DNA of 18,420 bases from Pseudomonadota bacterium (lineage in GTDB: Bacteria; Myxococcota; JACRCW01; JAFGSX01), in assembly GCA_043821645.1 (NCBI GenBank), contig JBDRCO010000082.1, positions 1-18,420 of the forward strand. The letters run 5' to 3'. A program made the position numbers. Of this stretch, positions 6,001 to 12,000 are shown piece after piece (position 1 is the first letter of the stretch; every line of letters begins with the position of its first letter).

Positions 6001-9000
6001 TCAACGTCGTCTGGCGGATTCTTGAAGACACCCCCGTAGGCGTTTTCCCTGTCCACGATCAGCGGACGGCACTCGGTGACCGGCCCCCAGGCCTGCGACT
6101 TGGGGTCGTTCGAGGCCACCATCGGCAGACCTGCCTCCTGCCACCCCTTCACACCTTCCTCGTACACCTGGACATTGGTCATCCGAAGGTCTTGCAGGCG
6201 CACTGCGGCATCGGCTGCCAGGTGACACGCCCCACCGGCCGAGTAAACGACGACCAGCGAGTCCGGCTTCATGACGCTGGCAACCCGAAAGGTCAACGAA
6301 CCGAGAGGCGCGGTCATCGCACCTGGCAGGTGACCTTTCTCGAACTCCATGTCGCCTCGCACGTCAAACAGCGCCACCTTGCCGGTGTGCAGCAGCTCGT
6401 CCAGCCGCTCTGTCGTCATGTTGGTCACGAAATCCTCCTCTGGACTCTGCGCCCTGTTGCCAGTGGATGTAGCTCAGGAGGGACAGGGCGGCAGCCGGCT
6501 GACGATCGAGATCCGGGCGAGGGTCCTCTGTGGGTCTGGGCCCCAGAAAAGGTGCCATCGAAAAAGTGGCTGCGTGACTGGGGTCTGGTGCTGGTCAAGC
6601 GCCTGGGCCGCAACAAGGCCATCGTCGCCATCGCGCGCAAGCTGGCGAGCGTGCTGTGGTCGATGTGGAAGAACGAGCGCGCGTTCGAGCCCATGTACGG
6701 CGTGGCGTGACGACGGAGATTGCAGGTCACCGCGGAGCCCAAGGTGAGCCGTCGGAGGTCATCAAGAGGGTGGTGTGCGGCAGGTGCCATGGCAGGACAA
6801 CCGTGCCGATTGTGTGATGGCACCCACCCTTCGAATACCATCCTGTGCCCGGGCATCCAGGCCCGATAAAGAGCACCTATCGATGGCTGAGGAGACGCTC
6901 TCGACGACGACACCAGGGATCCGCTGAACAGGGAGGAGGTCAGGCAGGGGAGACACAGAACATAGCGATAGCTCGGGCGAGGTCAGGCTGTGCTTGACAT
7001 GGTGGGCCGCTTTATCGATGGCACCCTCTGTGGGCAGCTTTTGGGCTGGAAGTCATCACAGCCTGTCGGGTTTGTTCCCTCACCAGCACCCATAGTACAA
7101 TCAAGAGCCACGCCGGGAGGGTTCATGAGGAAGCACCTGCAGCTCGCCATCCTTGCCTCTGGCCTGGTCTTTTCACTCGCGACAACAGGCCTGCCGGAGC
7201 CCGGAGAAGATGATGCGGGTGGTGGCGCCGATTCCGGCTCCGTGAATCAGGAATGCACCAACCCTGTTCAGGCGCCGACCGGCAGCGCCAGCCTCACCGG
7301 TGCGGACTTCACGCCAGTCGACGCCGTGGCCTTTGTCATGCGCCGACAGGACCTTGCGAGCGAGGCTGGCCAGGTGCCCTACATGACGAATCTGGAGATC
7401 AAGTTGACCGACTATCCCGGGGCCTGCGGTGTTGAAAACGCCGGTCTCAATGTGCGAGGTGCGCAGTGGTTCCGCCTGGCCCTGATCGCACCTTCGGAGT
7501 CAGAGTACCCAGCCCTGCCCATGCCAGGCACCTATGCCTGGAGCGATGCGCTGCCCATGCCCTGGGATACCTACACCTTTCGTGCCGGGTGGAAGATCTG
7601 GGACTGCAACCTCGACTGCGAGCCTTGTGGCCAGCTCGTCGCCGGAACACCCTCGGGGACATTGACCCTGACCGCGGTCAGCGAAAGCGAGGTCTCGGGC
7701 AGTTTCTCCTTTGATAGCGGCGGAGATGGTGTCTATTCGGGCTCCTTCACGGCCCCCATCTGCACTAGTGGCGTGCCCGAGGACGAGCGTTGCTGCTGGA
7801 CGGGTGAATAGAACGTCCCCTCACAGGTGCCAGCCACCCCTTCGGGTTGTGTCCATCGTCTGAACACCTTTTCGGGGAATCTATCCTGGCGAACCTGTCC
7901 TGGAGGGCAGCCGCAGCACCGCCATCGGCACATAGGGCGCAAAAAAGTAAGTCAGACTTCGATAGTGCAGCCCTTGCACGATGGCCGCGTCGCGAACCAC
8001 GCCTGCCAGCTCTTCCAGAGCATCCGCCACATCGTGGTGCTCACCCAGCCGCTGCAGCTGCGCGCCCGCAGGCAGCCGACGTCGCAGGCGCACCTCGTCG
8101 AACAGGTCGGCGACGATGGCGGTCATCGCGATCAGCGACACCGGAGACAGCAGCCACAGGGGCGTCTGCACGAGGTGGATGACGACAAACCAGGCGAGCG
8201 TGGAGCCCAGCACGAAGGCTAGACTCTGCCACTGCAGGCGACGCCAGCTGGCACCGTGCTCGGTGACAAAACCCACCTGGCGCCGCCAGTAAAAAAGTCG
8301 CGTTGCGATCACGGCGACCAGCGTGATCACTGTCAGCTCAAAAGCCAGGTAGATGGTGCTCCCTGGTGCAAGACGGCGCGAGAGCTCGTGCAGCCAGTGG
8401 CTATCGAGCAGGCTCGCAAGCGTCGCGGGCACCATGCCCAGGCTGCTGGCCACGACTAGAGGCCAGGTGCCGCAGGTGGGCACTCGGACAGGCAGGGCGT
8501 CGGGCCCGTCATCGCCACGCCTCAGCAGCCACCAGGTGACGCCGACAAAACCGACGATCGCGGCGACCATCAGCACAAGCTGGATACCTGCCAGCGTCCC
8601 CTCGACCAGCATCTGCCGCAGCTGCACTACGACGCGGGGCAGGTCGAGTGCCAGATCGACCAGGATCAGCAGCACGAAGCCAGGTCCCACCCCATGCAGG
8701 TCGATCAGACGGGCCATGGCCACGCACAGACAGCTCGCGGCCACCAGGGTCACGACGCTGCCGGCGCGAAAGGCAAAACCAGCATTCACCAGCGGTTCGC
8801 CCATCACGTTGAGGGACTCGAAGTACACGGCCAGGCTCAGAGCCTGCACGCTGGCCACCAGGACACCGACAATCAGCGCGGCCCTCGTCAGGGCCGACCG
8901 CAGGGCCGGATCTCCGTGCCGACGGCAGCGCCACTGCGGCACCATCAGGGCGACCAACTCGACGAGGACAAAGGCAGAGATGAAGGGTGTGATACCGACG

Positions 9001-12000
9001 GCCAGTAGACTCACCCCTTGTGGGATCAAAAGACCGTCCAAGTGCAACATCTCGCGCAGCAGGTCGTGGCGCACAAAGGGCATCCAGACCAGCGAACTCA
9101 GCCAGACCGGCAACAGGCACAGCACGGTGACCGTCAACCGGCGGACCAGGTCGCGCGGCCAGCCTGCCTCGGCGGCCGGTGACGACGTGGACGCGTTCAG
9201 GGATGCGGCGACCAGTGCAGTGCCGCAGTCCGAGCAGTGCTCGACGCGGTCGTTGTACTCGGCGGGTTGACCCGTGCGTGTGCGATGGGGGCAATCGGGG
9301 TTGGTGCAGTGCTTCATGAAGTGACCTGGCTGCCGTGGCGAGAGGCCGACGGCCCATGATCTAGCACAGGCTCAAAGGGCTCGACACGCTTGTTGCTTTT
9401 CGGCAGGGGCGGACGGCTGGGGGCCGGATCTCGGACGAGAATGAGAAAGGAGAGGGGACAGAGCCCCCCAAACAAGTGCCCCCGGATAGGTGCCCGCCAC
9501 CTCTCCAGGGAGGCCTCGCTCGTTGCGTGCTATCCCTGCCCCGCGTCCCCCGGGCTGCCGAGGAAGCGACCGAACATCTCCAGGTAAGCCTCCGGTAGCG
9601 GCACCGGCCGCTCGGTGTTGAGGTCAATGAGCACGGTGGTGACATCGGCTGAGAAGCACAGCTCCCCGTCGCGACGTCGTCGAAGCTCGTAGTGAAAAAC
9701 CACCGACGAGGTCCCGATGCGCTTCACCGAGAGGTCGATCACGGCCACGTCGCCGTAGCTCAGGGGGGCTTTGAACTCGCTGCCGATGGCGACGGTAGGA
9801 AACCCCAGGCGCTGGTCCCGGATCATCTCCGGGTAGGTGATGGGCGCGGCGGTGTCGAAGAAGTCCTCGAAGGCTGCATGGCAGAGATGGAAGTACTGCG
9901 GGTAGTACACGATGCCCGCCCCGTCGACATCGTCGAAGCGGATCTTGTGCACGCTGGTGAAGGACATCATTCCTCCGCACGGTCCGGCGACCTGTGTTGC
10001 ACGCGCGCCCACCGCGGCCGGCGGGACCCCCCGAGCGGCGTCCACCCAAATACCCGCCCGCAATTCCAGCCACATAGCGGCTACTCCGGGCCCGGGACCA
10101 GAATAGTGTCACCCCGGACCATCACCGCGTTCCTGTTCACCCAGATGACCAAGGGCACCTTTCGCTCCCATGAGCCTGCGAAGGCCTTCTTCGTCGACGT
10201 CTCTGTCCAGCTCAACACGCCCTCGGTGATCTTCGCCGGCAAGCTCATCGCCTGCATCGGGCTCGCGACCAACAAGCCGGCCGAGTTCATCGTGCTGCGG
10301 TTTTCCCAGGTCACCCGTGCCCTCGAGGCCGAGCTCGCCGCATGGGTTCTCCCTGTCCAGGCCTGGGGCCTGACAGCGACACTAGGGTGCGTCGCGCACG
10401 CACATCACCGACTTGGTGCGACTCTTGAGATCGCGGTTGACCGCACCAGCTGAGCGGTTCAGATACCAGGCCTCGTCGAGAAACTGCGCGTTCGTTGTTG
10501 AGCACCAGACCGGATTGGTGACCGGGTTGGGGAAGACGCTTGGGTCGAGGTGGATGGTGATGGTTGTCCGATCCCACAGCACGCTCTGTCCCTCGAGCAC
10601 GCTGGGCAGTCGCCAGTCTGCAAAGCTGCCCCAGTCGAGGTCCGCGCAGTAGCTCAGGGCGGCTTGCCAGCTGACGCTGCTGGCCGAACCCGAGCTGCAA
10701 TCGGTACCGTCCTGACCCGCCAGGCAGCCCTGCCACATCAAGCCCATCGCGTTGTCGACCACCACGGGCTGCGTCAGCCCCTGGCGCACGAACCGCTCGC
10801 CGGCAGGTAGCGGGTAGGTCGCGGTGTGGCGCCGCACGCAGCGCACGCCGCTGGCGGTGGTTGTGGCGGCGACGGAGATGATTCCGGTCGTCCCCCCCAC
10901 GTAGTAAGCCCGGGTTGCATCCTCCGGGTCGGCGCTGATGCTCCAGTAGGTGGAGGCGACAGCGCCAGCGAAGAACGCGCTGTCGAGCGCTGGCGCGTAT
11001 CGTTCGAAGTGAACCGTGGTGGAGAGCTCGAAGCGGTCGGGGAGATGCCAGTCGGTGTGACCACCCCAGGCCAGCGTCTCGCATTGGTCGATGCTCTCGG
11101 TCCAGGTGTGGCTCGCCATCGTGCCATCGGTGCAGGCGGAACCCCGCAGCCCGCTGCTGCAACCTTGCCACATGAGCCCGGTGATGTTGTCGACGACGAC
11201 CGGTTCGCCGGCCACGAGTTCCGTCAGAAGGTACCGCTCGTTCGCCTGGTGTCCGAGATCCCAGCCGTACTGCGCGTCCTGTCCGCAGAACGGCGTGCTG
11301 CCGCAGGTGCCGAGCGCGACGTTGCCGGGGCAGGCGATGGCTGCTGCACCGTCGTAGCAAAGGCGTTGACCCGTGTCCGGCAGCGCAAATCCTGGCCCAA
11401 GTGGGTTGCAGTCGCGGGTTCCGCAGCCGGGTGACGTGCAGGCGCCGCCCTGGCAGATGTCGTAGTCCCGGTCGGGGACGGTGATCGTCGTACAGGGGGT
11501 GTATTCGATGGCCGCTGTGCAGTCGGCGGTCCACGCGTCGCCCCCTGACGTGTCGGGGGCGGGCCTATCCGCTGTCGCCTGGTCGGGGGTGCCGTGGTCC
11601 ATGGGCGCTGCATCGAGCAAGGTACCATCACTTGAGACTGTGTCGGTCGCTGCCGCCTCGGCTGCGCCGGTTTCCGCAACCCCCTCATCTGGCGTGTTCG
11701 CTTGGTCCCGGGCCAGGGTGTCGCAGATCGCATCGAAACCAAGGTCCTGGTGTGCGCGGTCGGTGAGGCCAGTGGCGGCGTCGACTTCGTCGAACGGTGG
11801 TGCGGCGTCAAACGCGCCGGCGGGGGGCGACCAAAATCCGCCGCGCATGCATGCCGACGCACAAGCTGCGGCGATGGATGACACAACGCAGATGCAGGCA
11901 TGGATTCGCACTGCTACGAGCTCCTCGCCGTGCGACGCGCTTGTGGCCGAATGTGTCACCCGCGTCGACGCCTGCCGTAGGAAGCATGAAGTGCCTTCCC

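Follow-up and report, generated by a model that had tools for sequence, protein, structure and literature searches.

Gene and contig

Gene P0001 occupies positions 7881..9317 on the minus strand of the window (the whole stretch of 18,420 nucleotides that was analysed), and all of its parts described below lie on that strand. Its open reading frame runs from an ATG start to a stop codon at 7881-7883 and encodes a 478-aa protein in which, according to the translation, the Pfam SecY match and an AlphaFold2 model, a zinc ribbon, a SecY core and a DUF2007-like domain follow one another. G+C values at the three codon positions (0.71/0.47/0.80) are those usually seen in coding sequence of this genome. 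A terminator-like hairpin, located by consensus scan at 9453..9469 on the minus strand between the upstream thioesterase gene and P0001, suggests that the gene may be a transcription unit of its own.

The G+C content is 62.7% in the contig and 67.2% genome-wide, and positions 12675-13550, 3.4 kb from the gene, encode an IS3-type transposase. An earlier note on this DNA had raised a mobile element or a binning error on these grounds, and both observations stand. However, the tetranucleotide profile of the contig is no outlier (correlation 0.969; the ribosomal-protein contig scores lower) and the frame is intact. A decaying duplicate, mobile-element cargo or a misbinned contig, any of which would leave the gene functionless in this organism, could also account for the patchy presence of the family, which is seen even inside one genus. 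Yet 16 positions reach at least 90% conservation in 143 diverse family rows, dN/dS is below 1 (0.25-0.60 in five pairs), relatives in complete genomes sit in core chromosomal contexts, adjoining mutS and an ABC1 kinase gene, and PADLOC returned no matches. These readings are thus largely refuted and extremely improbable.

A SecY-type membrane core

SecY is the universal protein-export channel. P0001 matches Pfam SecY (PF00344) over residues 103-340 with E 4.7e-19 and 69.3 bits (cut-off 32.2), as do 93 of 95 family members, and it matches SecY chains of the PDB to E 9.5e-18; for the family profile, the PDB match reaches E 1e-72 over profile positions 48-420. Exactly two SecY matches were found in the genome, P0001 and a canonical copy (C78:10167-11189), and the two are 29% identical (88/306; BLASTP E 3e-28). 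On the housekeeping equivalog model TIGR00967, P0001 reaches 51.9 bits, where the cut-off is 253.6.

The AlphaFold2 model (pLDDT 93.6, pTM 0.88) contains the ten-helix, two-half hourglass of the SecY/Sec61-alpha superfamily. This core spans residues 55-413 (8079..9155), as indicated by the model helices (55-74, 110-125, 137-168, 181-208, 213-239, 244-266, 285-304, 321-342, 344-383 and 392-413), the structure match and the family profile. Residues 52-419 of the model align with SecY chain 8ya3_Y over 356 residues (VIA-align; Z 28.1, rmsd 3.3). The eight top structure matches are all substrate-engaged SecA-SecY (Z 25.2-28.1), and the resting state scores 22.5. The description of P0001 as a second, very divergent SecY with a full membrane core is therefore upheld by the Pfam match, the sequence identity and the structural alignment. 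The Atlas figures reported earlier were also reproduced, both for the Atlas model (TM 0.71 over 47-419, pLDDT 0.62) and for its nearest cluster, which carries SecY in 97% and DUF2007 in 39% of members.

Like housekeeping SecY, P0001 has an N-in/C-in topology, GxxP in TM2b, GxGNG in TM5, GxxP in TM7 and the terminal D of TM10; at least 90% of the 143 rows retain G108/P111, G209-G213, G283/P286 and D404. The pore ring is also hydrophobic, as in the housekeeping channel. The E. coli ring includes I82 and I86. Its other four residues, I187, I191, I278 and I408, are named in PMC2171872. In P0001 all six corresponding residues are hydrophobic (I109, I113, I218, L222, V288 and A397). Five of the six positions (109, 113, 218, 222 and 397) carry hydrophobic or small residues across the family; conserved hydrophobicity is lacking at the TM7 position, with E in 37, S in 20 and T in 18 of the 143 rows.

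Plug, docking loops and acidic substitutions

The plug (TM2a) region is reduced to a remnant at residues 92-107 (8997..9044), as judged from anchor spacing, a gap against the genome's own SecY, and the model. The P that follows TM1 and the G of TM2b are 28 residues apart in P0001 and 13-38 in the family, versus 38-42 in canonical SecY; the BLASTP gap is 14 residues, and no modelled helix of plug length occupies the place of a canonical TM2a.

Canonical SecY docks the ribosome and SecA through its C4 hairpin and its C5 'IPGxRPG' loop, and the conserved Arg of the C5 motif serves the function of both partners. The C4 loop of P0001, between TM6 and TM7 (residues 267-284, 8466..8519), is shortened by 17 residues relative to the genome's own SecY (BLASTP gap), and the G213..G283 spacing is 70 residues versus 85-88 in canonical SecY. 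The canonical hairpin 'YAKR..G....YGG' is missing from all 19 family rows inspected. A remnant of C5 lies between TM8 and TM9 (residues 343-360, 8238..8291), where the model leads TM8 nearly straight into helix 344-383 and the G319..D404 spacing is 85 residues versus 102. The 'IPGxRPG' motif is likewise gone from 19/19 rows inspected. The shortening of C5 by about 17 residues, however, is confined to the clade of P0001, and many other members have the canonical length. The claim that the family has lost both docking loops thus holds for the C4 hairpin and the C5 motif, and for C5 length only within this clade.

The Glu-for-Gln exchange reported earlier in TM2b is borne out: E120 (codon 8958..8960) is E in 141/143 family rows, and the aligned position (E. 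coli Q93) is Q in 6/6 canonical SecY proteins. In PMC2171872, Q93 appears as a residue picked for the channel interior that cross-linked weakly to the translocating chain. A second exchange is seen in the alignment at the cytoplasmic end of TM10, where 134 of 143 family rows have E (E408 of P0001, codon 8094..8096), five have D, and the canonical residue is Q in 5/6 proteins. The signature of the family is therefore wider than first described, and comprises two funnel Gln-to-Glu changes, a shorter plug, a cut C4 hairpin and loss of the C5 motif. The acidic vestibule formed by E120 and E408 probably engages basic substrate segments or is a protonatable site.

The short plug and the polar or acidic TM7 ring position fit a leaky or ion-conducting pore equally well as a protein channel. 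P0001 might accordingly be a pore that derives from SecY but has given up moving proteins, either a regulated ion or small-solute channel or a sensor, in which the acidic vestibule would confer cation selectivity and the DUF2007 domain would act as a PII-like gate, by analogy with PII proteins, which plug transporters. The two nearly invariant Glu residues, the disappearance of all known docking elements for protein-delivery machines and the solitary, partnerless gene are consistent with such a pore. We nevertheless consider it rather unlikely, given the protein-channel-like hydrophobicity of five of the six ring positions, the closest match of the model to substrate-engaged SecY, and the repeated, independent fusions to a polypeptide-handling domain described below.

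Zinc ribbon, linker and C-terminal domain

The N-terminal Cys4 zinc ribbon (residues 1-36, 9210..9317) is predicted from conservation and the model, in which it has pLDDT 93-97. C4, C9, C28 and C31, two CxxC-type pairs with conserved spacing, each recur in at least 90% of 95 members, in agreement with the earlier note, and 101/143 family rows carry the Cys4 pattern; the ribbon scores 19.4 bits on NCBIfam 4Cys_prefix_kin, under the cut-off of 24. A flexible Ser/Ala/Pro-rich linker follows (residues 37-54, 9156..9209). It is variable in length in alignments, and its residues 41-50 are the sole low-confidence block of the model (mean pLDDT 52).

Residues 414-478 (7884..8078) form a C-terminal cytoplasmic domain that, by family alignment, is DUF2007-like without the last helix. 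Pfam DUF2007 (PF09413) is matched by 50 of 95 aligned members (best E 3.7e-8), and the domain, previously called weak, is not so at the family level. P0001 alone has no DUF2007 match at E<=1 in Pfam, and in a fold search its C-domain model matched 2hfv at rank 13 (Z 3.6), and none of the rows reached Z 5. The modelled fold is beta-alpha-beta-beta, and at least 90% of rows retain R453, F459 and P461; the clade of P0001 stops short of the final DUF2007 helix. The C-terminal domain of the family is probably DUF2007, an assignment that would extend to P0001 itself through the family alignment.

The same genome encodes a soluble protein (contig C113, 118 aa; DUF2007 E 5e-7) that has these two domains in the same order, as in other proteins of the PF09413 kind ('putative signal transducing protein'), and its zinc ribbon is 53% identical to that of P0001 over 30 residues. 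P0001 differs from the soluble proteins in having about 360 SecY-core residues between the two domains and a DUF2007 part without its last helix. In view of this soluble counterpart, the SecY membrane core is seen to lie inside a cytoplasmic zinc-ribbon and DUF2007 module, with one half of the module on either side. The Atlas also holds clusters of DUF2007 proteins of about 117 aa, some with zinc-ribbon families, which serve as leads only.

Family size and distribution

Contrary to what had been proposed, the family is not small: a phmmer search of 1.84 billion representatives yielded at least 150 clusters at 50% identity. There were 66 matches at E<=1e-30, and the best 150 (E<=5e-22) are mostly full-length look-alikes. 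Nor is it confined to Myxococcota. Within the phylum of P0001, 401 genomes were sampled and at least 33 carry it, with an internal stop in just one. It also occurs sporadically in MAGs of Acidobacteriota and Verrucomicrobiota (named loci: four Acidobacteriota and one Limisphaerales), although it is rare in these groups (2/101 sampled genomes). A housekeeping SecY accompanies it in 31 of the 33 listed phylum genomes and 4/4 outside the phylum, so that its coexistence with the canonical copy, given earlier as invariable, is nearly so. The tree splits the family from canonical SecY with SH-aLRT 100. As the earlier note had also reported, a literature search found no paper describing it. Within the SecY superfamily, P0001 falls in a large branch that has so far gone undescribed.

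Fusions to the SecD P1 domain

In SecDF, emerging unfolded polypeptide is handled by the periplasmic P1 domain of SecD, which to our knowledge is known solely from polypeptide handling. A true P1 head (PF22599) was detected in 8 of 18 scanned relatives, at the N or C terminus and with consistent TM topology, and ten further P1-fused relatives were found beyond these. The heads match with E 1e-15 to 1e-25, are anchored by one or two helices, and have canonical SecD proteins as their next-best homologues. Two fusions are single uninterrupted ORFs on metagenome DNA (loci L045 and L046), and a third metagenome locus (L051) holds a tandem pair. One fused relative, P0045, falls within the clade of P0001 (support 99).

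P0001 itself, unlike SecDF, lacks a P1 domain, and the canonical SecD is the only one in its genome. The N-terminally fused form was not found at E<=1e-110 in the 401 genomes of the phylum, and Pfam detected no SecD/SecF membrane domain (PF02355) beside P1 in the fusions, a further difference from SecDF. A literature search returned no description of such a SecY-P1 fusion.

Partners and comparison with accessory translocons

No conserved neighbour gene was found in 35 loci, as the earlier note had observed, and no motor, SecE-like partner or substrate is therefore indicated. The genome contains one SecE gene. The P0001 gene is solitary and, unlike that of housekeeping SecY, lies outside the ribosomal-protein operon.

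SecY2 is part of the accessory Sec (aSec) system of Gram-positive bacteria, and P0001 resembles it in that both are divergent additional SecY proteins found alongside the essential one. P0001 might then be an accessory translocon of this kind, driven by SecA or the ribosome through non-canonical contacts and serving few dedicated substrates. The co-presence of the housekeeping SecY and the basic residues that persist in the loop remnants ('RR', 'WRR') are in keeping with this. However, P0001 scores 11.9 bits on the NCBIfam SecY2 model (NF009082) against a cut-off of 353, and neither SecA2, Asp nor glycosyltransferase genes adjoin it (SecA2/Asp genes are absent from the window and the 35 loci). 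The C5 motif with its conserved Arg is missing from all 19 family rows inspected, the family's hosts belong to diderm phyla, the protein has extra cytoplasmic domains, and the docking loops are lost. An accessory translocon of the SecY2 kind is thus very unlikely.

A proposed mode of action

P0001 would still be a polypeptide channel or insertase, acting alongside the housekeeping SecYEG. Its own zinc-ribbon/DUF2007 module, an addition relative to housekeeping SecY, would feed or gate it from the cytoplasm and replace a docked ribosome or SecA. In favour of this are the SecY fold and shared core motifs, the mostly hydrophobic pore ring, the family signature, the spread of the family and its dN/dS values, the P1 fusions and the soluble zinc-ribbon/DUF2007 counterpart. 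Against it stand the solitary gene, the absence of P1 from P0001, the failure to find the N-terminally fused form at E<=1e-110 in the 401 phylum genomes, and the short plug and often polar TM7 ring position. We give about an even chance to the proposal that P0001 is a specialised channel for polypeptides that operates with neither ribosome nor SecA docked.

A more far-reaching version, which we regard as decidedly unlikely, is a third, self-contained mode of Sec-type transport. Neither ribosome nor SecA would take part; the zinc-ribbon/PII-like module would select or gate substrates at the acid-lined vestibule, and in some lineages the protein would bring a SecD-type periplasmic catcher of its own, so that a single polypeptide would make up a mini-holotranslocon. 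The proton-motive force might power such a pore; it is even conceivable that the pore works backwards and draws damaged envelope proteins back into the cytoplasm.

As a copy of SecY that has lost its docking loops and carries a zinc ribbon and DUF2007 domain of its own, P0001 may therefore represent an undescribed route for proteins across the bacterial membrane.

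A second SecY with a canonical membrane fold

P0001, the 478-aa product of an open frame with an ATG start at 7881-9317 (-), matches Pfam SecY over residues 103-340 (E = 4.7e-19; 69.3 bits, cut-off 32.2) and solved SecY chains with a best E of 9.5e-18. Exactly two SecY matches were found in the genome, P0001 and the canonical gene on contig C78. The two proteins are 29% identical (88/306; E = 3e-28), with gaps in P0001 of 14 residues at the plug region and 17 at the C4 cytoplasmic loop, and P0001 scores far below the NCBIfam housekeeping SecY equivalog (51.9 bits vs cut-off 253.6). 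These comparisons bear out the earlier note, which had described a second, very divergent SecY at this level of identity to the canonical one.

An AlphaFold2 model built on an alignment of 143 relatives (mean pLDDT 93.6, pTM 0.88) places ten long helices within residues 55-413. Its zinc-ribbon region at the N terminus is predicted with confidence, the linker at residues 41-50 has low confidence, and the C-terminal domain is beta-alpha-beta-beta. The top Foldseek matches were SecY/Sec61 chains only, and VIA-align paired model residues 52-419 with SecY chain 8ya3_Y (Z 28.1, rmsd 3.3 Å, 356 residues). Each of the best eight rows (Z 25.2-28.1) is a SecY with SecA bound and substrate engaged, and resting-state SecYEG reached Z 22.5; as the top structures also differ in species, the resemblance of the predicted model to open-state SecY is suggestive only. 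A predicted complex with the genome's SecE scored 0.00 in a run without controls, and bears neither way on pairing.

Family size and distribution

A word-indexed search with P0001 returned 22 relatives, 11 of them full-length at 34-41% identity and all nameless or 'hypothetical', just as reported before. The impression of a small family did not survive a phmmer search of 1.84 billion cluster representatives, which gave 1613 matches at E<=1e-3; of these, 544 reach E<=1e-10 and 66 reach E<=1e-30. The best 150, which were listed, all have E<=5e-22 and mostly align from residue 1 to ~470. Pfam SecY matches 93 of 95 members. In a quick maximum-likelihood tree (LG+G4) of 58 rows, the 52 family rows split from six canonical SecY proteins with an SH-aLRT of 100. 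Forms of near-canonical length are basal and the more reduced ones form a 40-row clade (support 100), while P0001 lies within a clade of 14 rows (support 99).

Distribution was assessed with the family profile in 401 sampled genomes of the window's phylum, which the named relatives and the Atlas cluster suggest is Myxococcota; three unpublished genomes (G195, G428, G453) enter the tallies solely as genomes with canonical matches. Canonical SecY was detected in 387. A match reaching the family-specific ends of the profile was present in at least 33 genomes among the 150 matches listed, a floor, with 336 weaker matches lying beyond these. One of the 33 carries an internal stop, and 31 have at least one further SecY match; the claim that the paralogue always accompanies a housekeeping SecY thus holds for all but two. 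Presence, described earlier as patchy in Myxococcota, is patchy even inside one genus of complete 9-13-Mb genomes, and the family is not confined to Myxococcota. When 19 loci in named species genomes were sorted by title, ten came from Myxococcota-type MAGs (Polyangia, Myxococcaceae, Kofleriaceae, Anaeromyxobacter, 'Deltaproteobacteria'), four from Acidobacteriota (three Thermoanaerobaculia, one 'Acidobacteria') and one from Limisphaerales, and four bore doubtful TPA labels. All four out-of-phylum genomes searched whole contain both a family member and canonical SecY. In an Acidobacteriota-type phylum sample, the family occurs in 2 of 101 genomes, one being the sample's centre genome. A 1292-aa open frame in one locus (L026) has no extra domain and was therefore set aside as over-extended.

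Loss of docking elements and changes along the channel

SecY occurs universally, and how it contacts the ribosome and SecA is textbook knowledge: both dock on the C4 and C5 loops, and a C5 arginine is critical. In each of the 19 family rows inspected the C4 'YAKR...YGG' hairpin is truncated, and the stretch from TM5 to TM7 that includes it spans 70 residues in P0001 and mostly 62-80 in the family, against 85-88 in canonical SecY. The 'IPGxRPG' motif of C5 is absent from 19 of 19 inspected rows, those of near-canonical length included. The TM8-TM10 stretch with C5 measures 85 residues in P0001, 72-105 in the family and 102 in canonical SecY; shortening of C5 is a feature of P0001's clade only, which narrows the earlier note's statement that both loops are lost. 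The plug region is 28 residues long between anchors in P0001 (family 13-38, canonical 38-42). Against NCBIfam SecY2, P0001 again scores far below the cut-off (11.9 bits vs 353), and we regard it as quite improbable that the protein is an accessory translocon of the SecY2 type with continued use of SecA or ribosomes.

Residues expected of a SecY core are retained: G108/P111 in TM2b, G209-x-G-x-G213 in TM5, G283/P286 in TM7 and D404 at the end of TM10 are common to the family and canonical SecY (P0001 numbering). Others set the family apart. Position 120 is Glu in 141 of 143 family rows and Gln in 6/6 canonical proteins; position 408 is Glu in 134 and Asp in five of the 143, and Gln in 5/6 canonical. 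Further hallmarks of the family are R133 (141/143), a usual Arg at position 130, P280 and F342.

In P0001 the pore ring corresponds to I109, I113, I218, L222, V288 and A397; in E. coli the ring includes I82 and I86. Five of the positions are hydrophobic or small across the family, and the TM7 position is variable (E 37, S 20, T 18, V 13, G 10 of 143). Counted along the alignment, E120 and E408 each lie eleven residues cytoplasmic of a pore-ring residue and should, from this spacing, point into the cytoplasmic funnel at equal depth. The canonical Gln aligned with E120 is E. coli Q93, which Cannon et al. (PMC2171872) picked as a channel-interior residue and found to give weak cross-links to a translocating chain; the paper also names four E. 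coli pore-ring positions. A regulated ion or solute pore derived from SecY is an alternative that we consider unlikely.

A proposed zinc-ribbon and DUF2007 module around the core

A Cys4 pattern lies within the first 80 residues of 101 of 143 family rows. At the other end, 50 of 95 members have a C-terminal domain that Pfam recognises as DUF2007 (best 3.7e-8), a firmer assignment than the 'weak' one of the earlier note. P0001 itself falls below the model, yet it aligns column for column with matching members; R453, F459 and P461 are kept in at least 90% of rows, and P0001's clade lacks the last helix of the domain. Folded alone, the domain has a pLDDT of 76.8. Foldseek returned no match at E<=0.001 with this domain, and in a wide VIA-align comparison the highest Z was 4.5, for a SPOR domain; the DUF2007 structure 2hfv scored 3.6.

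The same genome encodes on contig C113 (L042:1384-1737, +) a 118-aa soluble protein with a zinc-ribbon-like motif followed by DUF2007, the same two domains as those flanking the SecY core in P0001. Its first 27 residues resemble the zinc ribbon of P0001 (53% identity over 30 residues, pairwise E 5e-5), and the remainder matches DUF2007 above the cut-off (5e-7). The second Cys pair is degenerate ('CSDDG'). Clusters of similar small proteins are widespread in the Atlas, some with zinc-ribbon families, and serve as leads only. Since both termini of SecY are cytoplasmic, P0001 would be a zinc-ribbon-DUF2007 module whose halves are separated by an inserted SecY core, and these two domains probably work together.

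Recurrent fusion to the SecD P1 domain

Domains were scanned in 18 relatives, including all long ones among the 150 listed phmmer matches, and eight carry the SecD periplasmic head domain P1 (PF22599, E 1e-15 to 1e-25). In six, a TM-P1-TM unit precedes the SecY-like core in place of the zinc ribbon; in two, a TM and P1 follow the DUF2007 domain. Hydropathy indicates a consistent topology in N- and C-fused forms, with P1 periplasmic. One 803-aa relative (P0087) has a C-terminal DUF4253 in place of P1. Searching with a profile of the N-fused forms added ten fused proteins and, beyond those, matched canonical SecD only.

In raw metagenome DNA, one unbroken ORF encodes the fusion in L045 (862 aa) and likewise in L046 (752 aa), and L051 holds two tandem fusions in the same orientation (L051:3878-5941 and L051:5929-8352; 687 and 807 aa); the fused gene of L048 is frameshifted. 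N-fused forms make up one clade of nine rows (support 98). Two C-fused forms fall outside it, and a third, P0045, sits inside P0001's clade beside the relative P0029 (support 95). By architecture, the P1 fusion therefore arose at least twice, and probably three times. All known fused forms come from metagenomes. No N-fused P1-SecY was found at E<=1e-110 in the 401 phylum genomes (two candidates scored per genome), a word search for longer fused forms, a weak test, found none, and P0001's genome has ordinary SecD only. Neighbours of fused genes are as varied as those of unfused ones. Directly upstream of the fused gene in L046 lie genes for an ECF sigma factor, a FecR-like anti-sigma protein and a LiaF-like protein (L046:1210-3820), a possible hint, at one locus only, of an envelope-stress link.

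Gene context, selection and the origin of the contig

The P0001 gene looks monocistronic because a terminator-like hairpin (9453-9469) lies between it and the thioesterase gene upstream, and the gene on its downstream side is convergent. Its codon-position G+C (0.71/0.47/0.80) is typical of coding sequence in the host genome, whose bin measures 7.07 Mb in 140 contigs (94.7% complete, 3.95% contamination). The window spans all 18,420 bp of contig C82 in this bin. Concern that the contig is a mobile element or a binning error was grounded in its low G+C (62.7% vs 67.2% for the genome) and an IS3-type transposase (rve, HTH_21) at 12675-13550 (+). Against this, the contig's tetranucleotide profile correlates with the genome mean at 0.969, above the ribosomal-protein contig, and the gene is conserved. 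Misbinning of the contig is possible, though nothing points toward it; whatever its binning, paralogue and canonical SecY occur together in complete genomes. Short contigs in a run of an independent study are identical to stretches of the window, among them 8207-8434 within the P0001 gene. No RNA data set turned up for the gene, and two metatranscriptome runs from one study gave no contigs on it, which bears neither way on expression.

Neighbours were clustered across 35 loci (17 named genomes, 17 phylum genomes and the window). None is conserved beyond sharing among close kin, no small hydrophobic SecE-like ORF recurs beside the family gene, and a PADLOC defence-system scan of P0001 and seven neighbouring ORFs gave no match. 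Within one genus, the gene's neighbours are an ABC1-kinase gene, mutS and an AcrB-type pump, a core-chromosome setting. Small (~128 aa) Cys-rich proteins with two hydrophobic helices adjoin the gene at two of the 35 loci: they flank it in L025 (8143-8529 and 9986-10369), and L035 has one at 9602-9994. In five pairs, dN/dS was 0.25-0.60, probably an overestimate because frames are over-extended and codon bias is strong. Conservation and composition speak against a pseudogene or misbinning reading of P0001 and against a decaying or foreign gene, which we consider very improbable.

Several other features of the window were recorded. In the IS3 region, contigs from two runs are interrupted or diverge near 12749-13352, as expected for a multi-copy or variable insertion. 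A 436-aa Gly/Gln/Met-rich ORF at 3667-4977 (-) has very strong codon-position bias (GC3 0.89) and no Pfam family; contigs of an RNA library match 3781-3991 and 4171-4414 within it, the library coming from the study that produced the best-matching DNA data set. Positions 17193-17806 show summed contig depths of 144 (run X1) and 23 (X2) vs ~8 and ~2 elsewhere, with joints at 17584/17672, and are probably a repeated or widely shared element. No ORF in 1-3600 has the usual coding G+C pattern, the only matches there being weak EGF-like ones at 1848-2753 (-). A DUF6855 protein (E 5e-69) is encoded at 13833-14243 (-), adjoined by a 118-aa ORF at 14365-14721 (-; GC3 0.89).

A possible additional use of the SecY fold

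P0001 keeps the SecY fold and a hydrophobic constriction, and it is conserved and under selection. In its family the canonical docking elements are lost, the plug is shortened, the funnel is acidified and a zinc-ribbon/DUF2007 module appears to enclose the core; among relatives, fusion to a SecD substrate-handling domain recurs. We give roughly an even chance to the explanation that P0001 is still able to conduct or insert polypeptide with no ribosome or SecA docked on it, in which case its own cytoplasmic module would act as receptor or gate. The probability left over from this and the alternatives weighed here belongs to explanations beyond those considered.

In the literature within reach of a full-text search, with subscription journals outside its coverage, no account of this SecY-like family, no SecY-DUF2007 architecture and no SecY-SecD P1 fusion was found. 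The family offers a first functional context for DUF2007 as a lead, natural 'minimal' SecY cores as gating models, and a natural SecY-SecD fusion as a model of cooperation between the two. It is a widespread, conserved paralogue that has given up precisely the contacts that SecY makes with the ribosome and SecA. Together, the lost contacts, the two Gln-to-Glu changes in the funnel, the short plug, the module and the repeated P1 fusion suggest that bacteria have an additional, unstudied use of the SecY fold.
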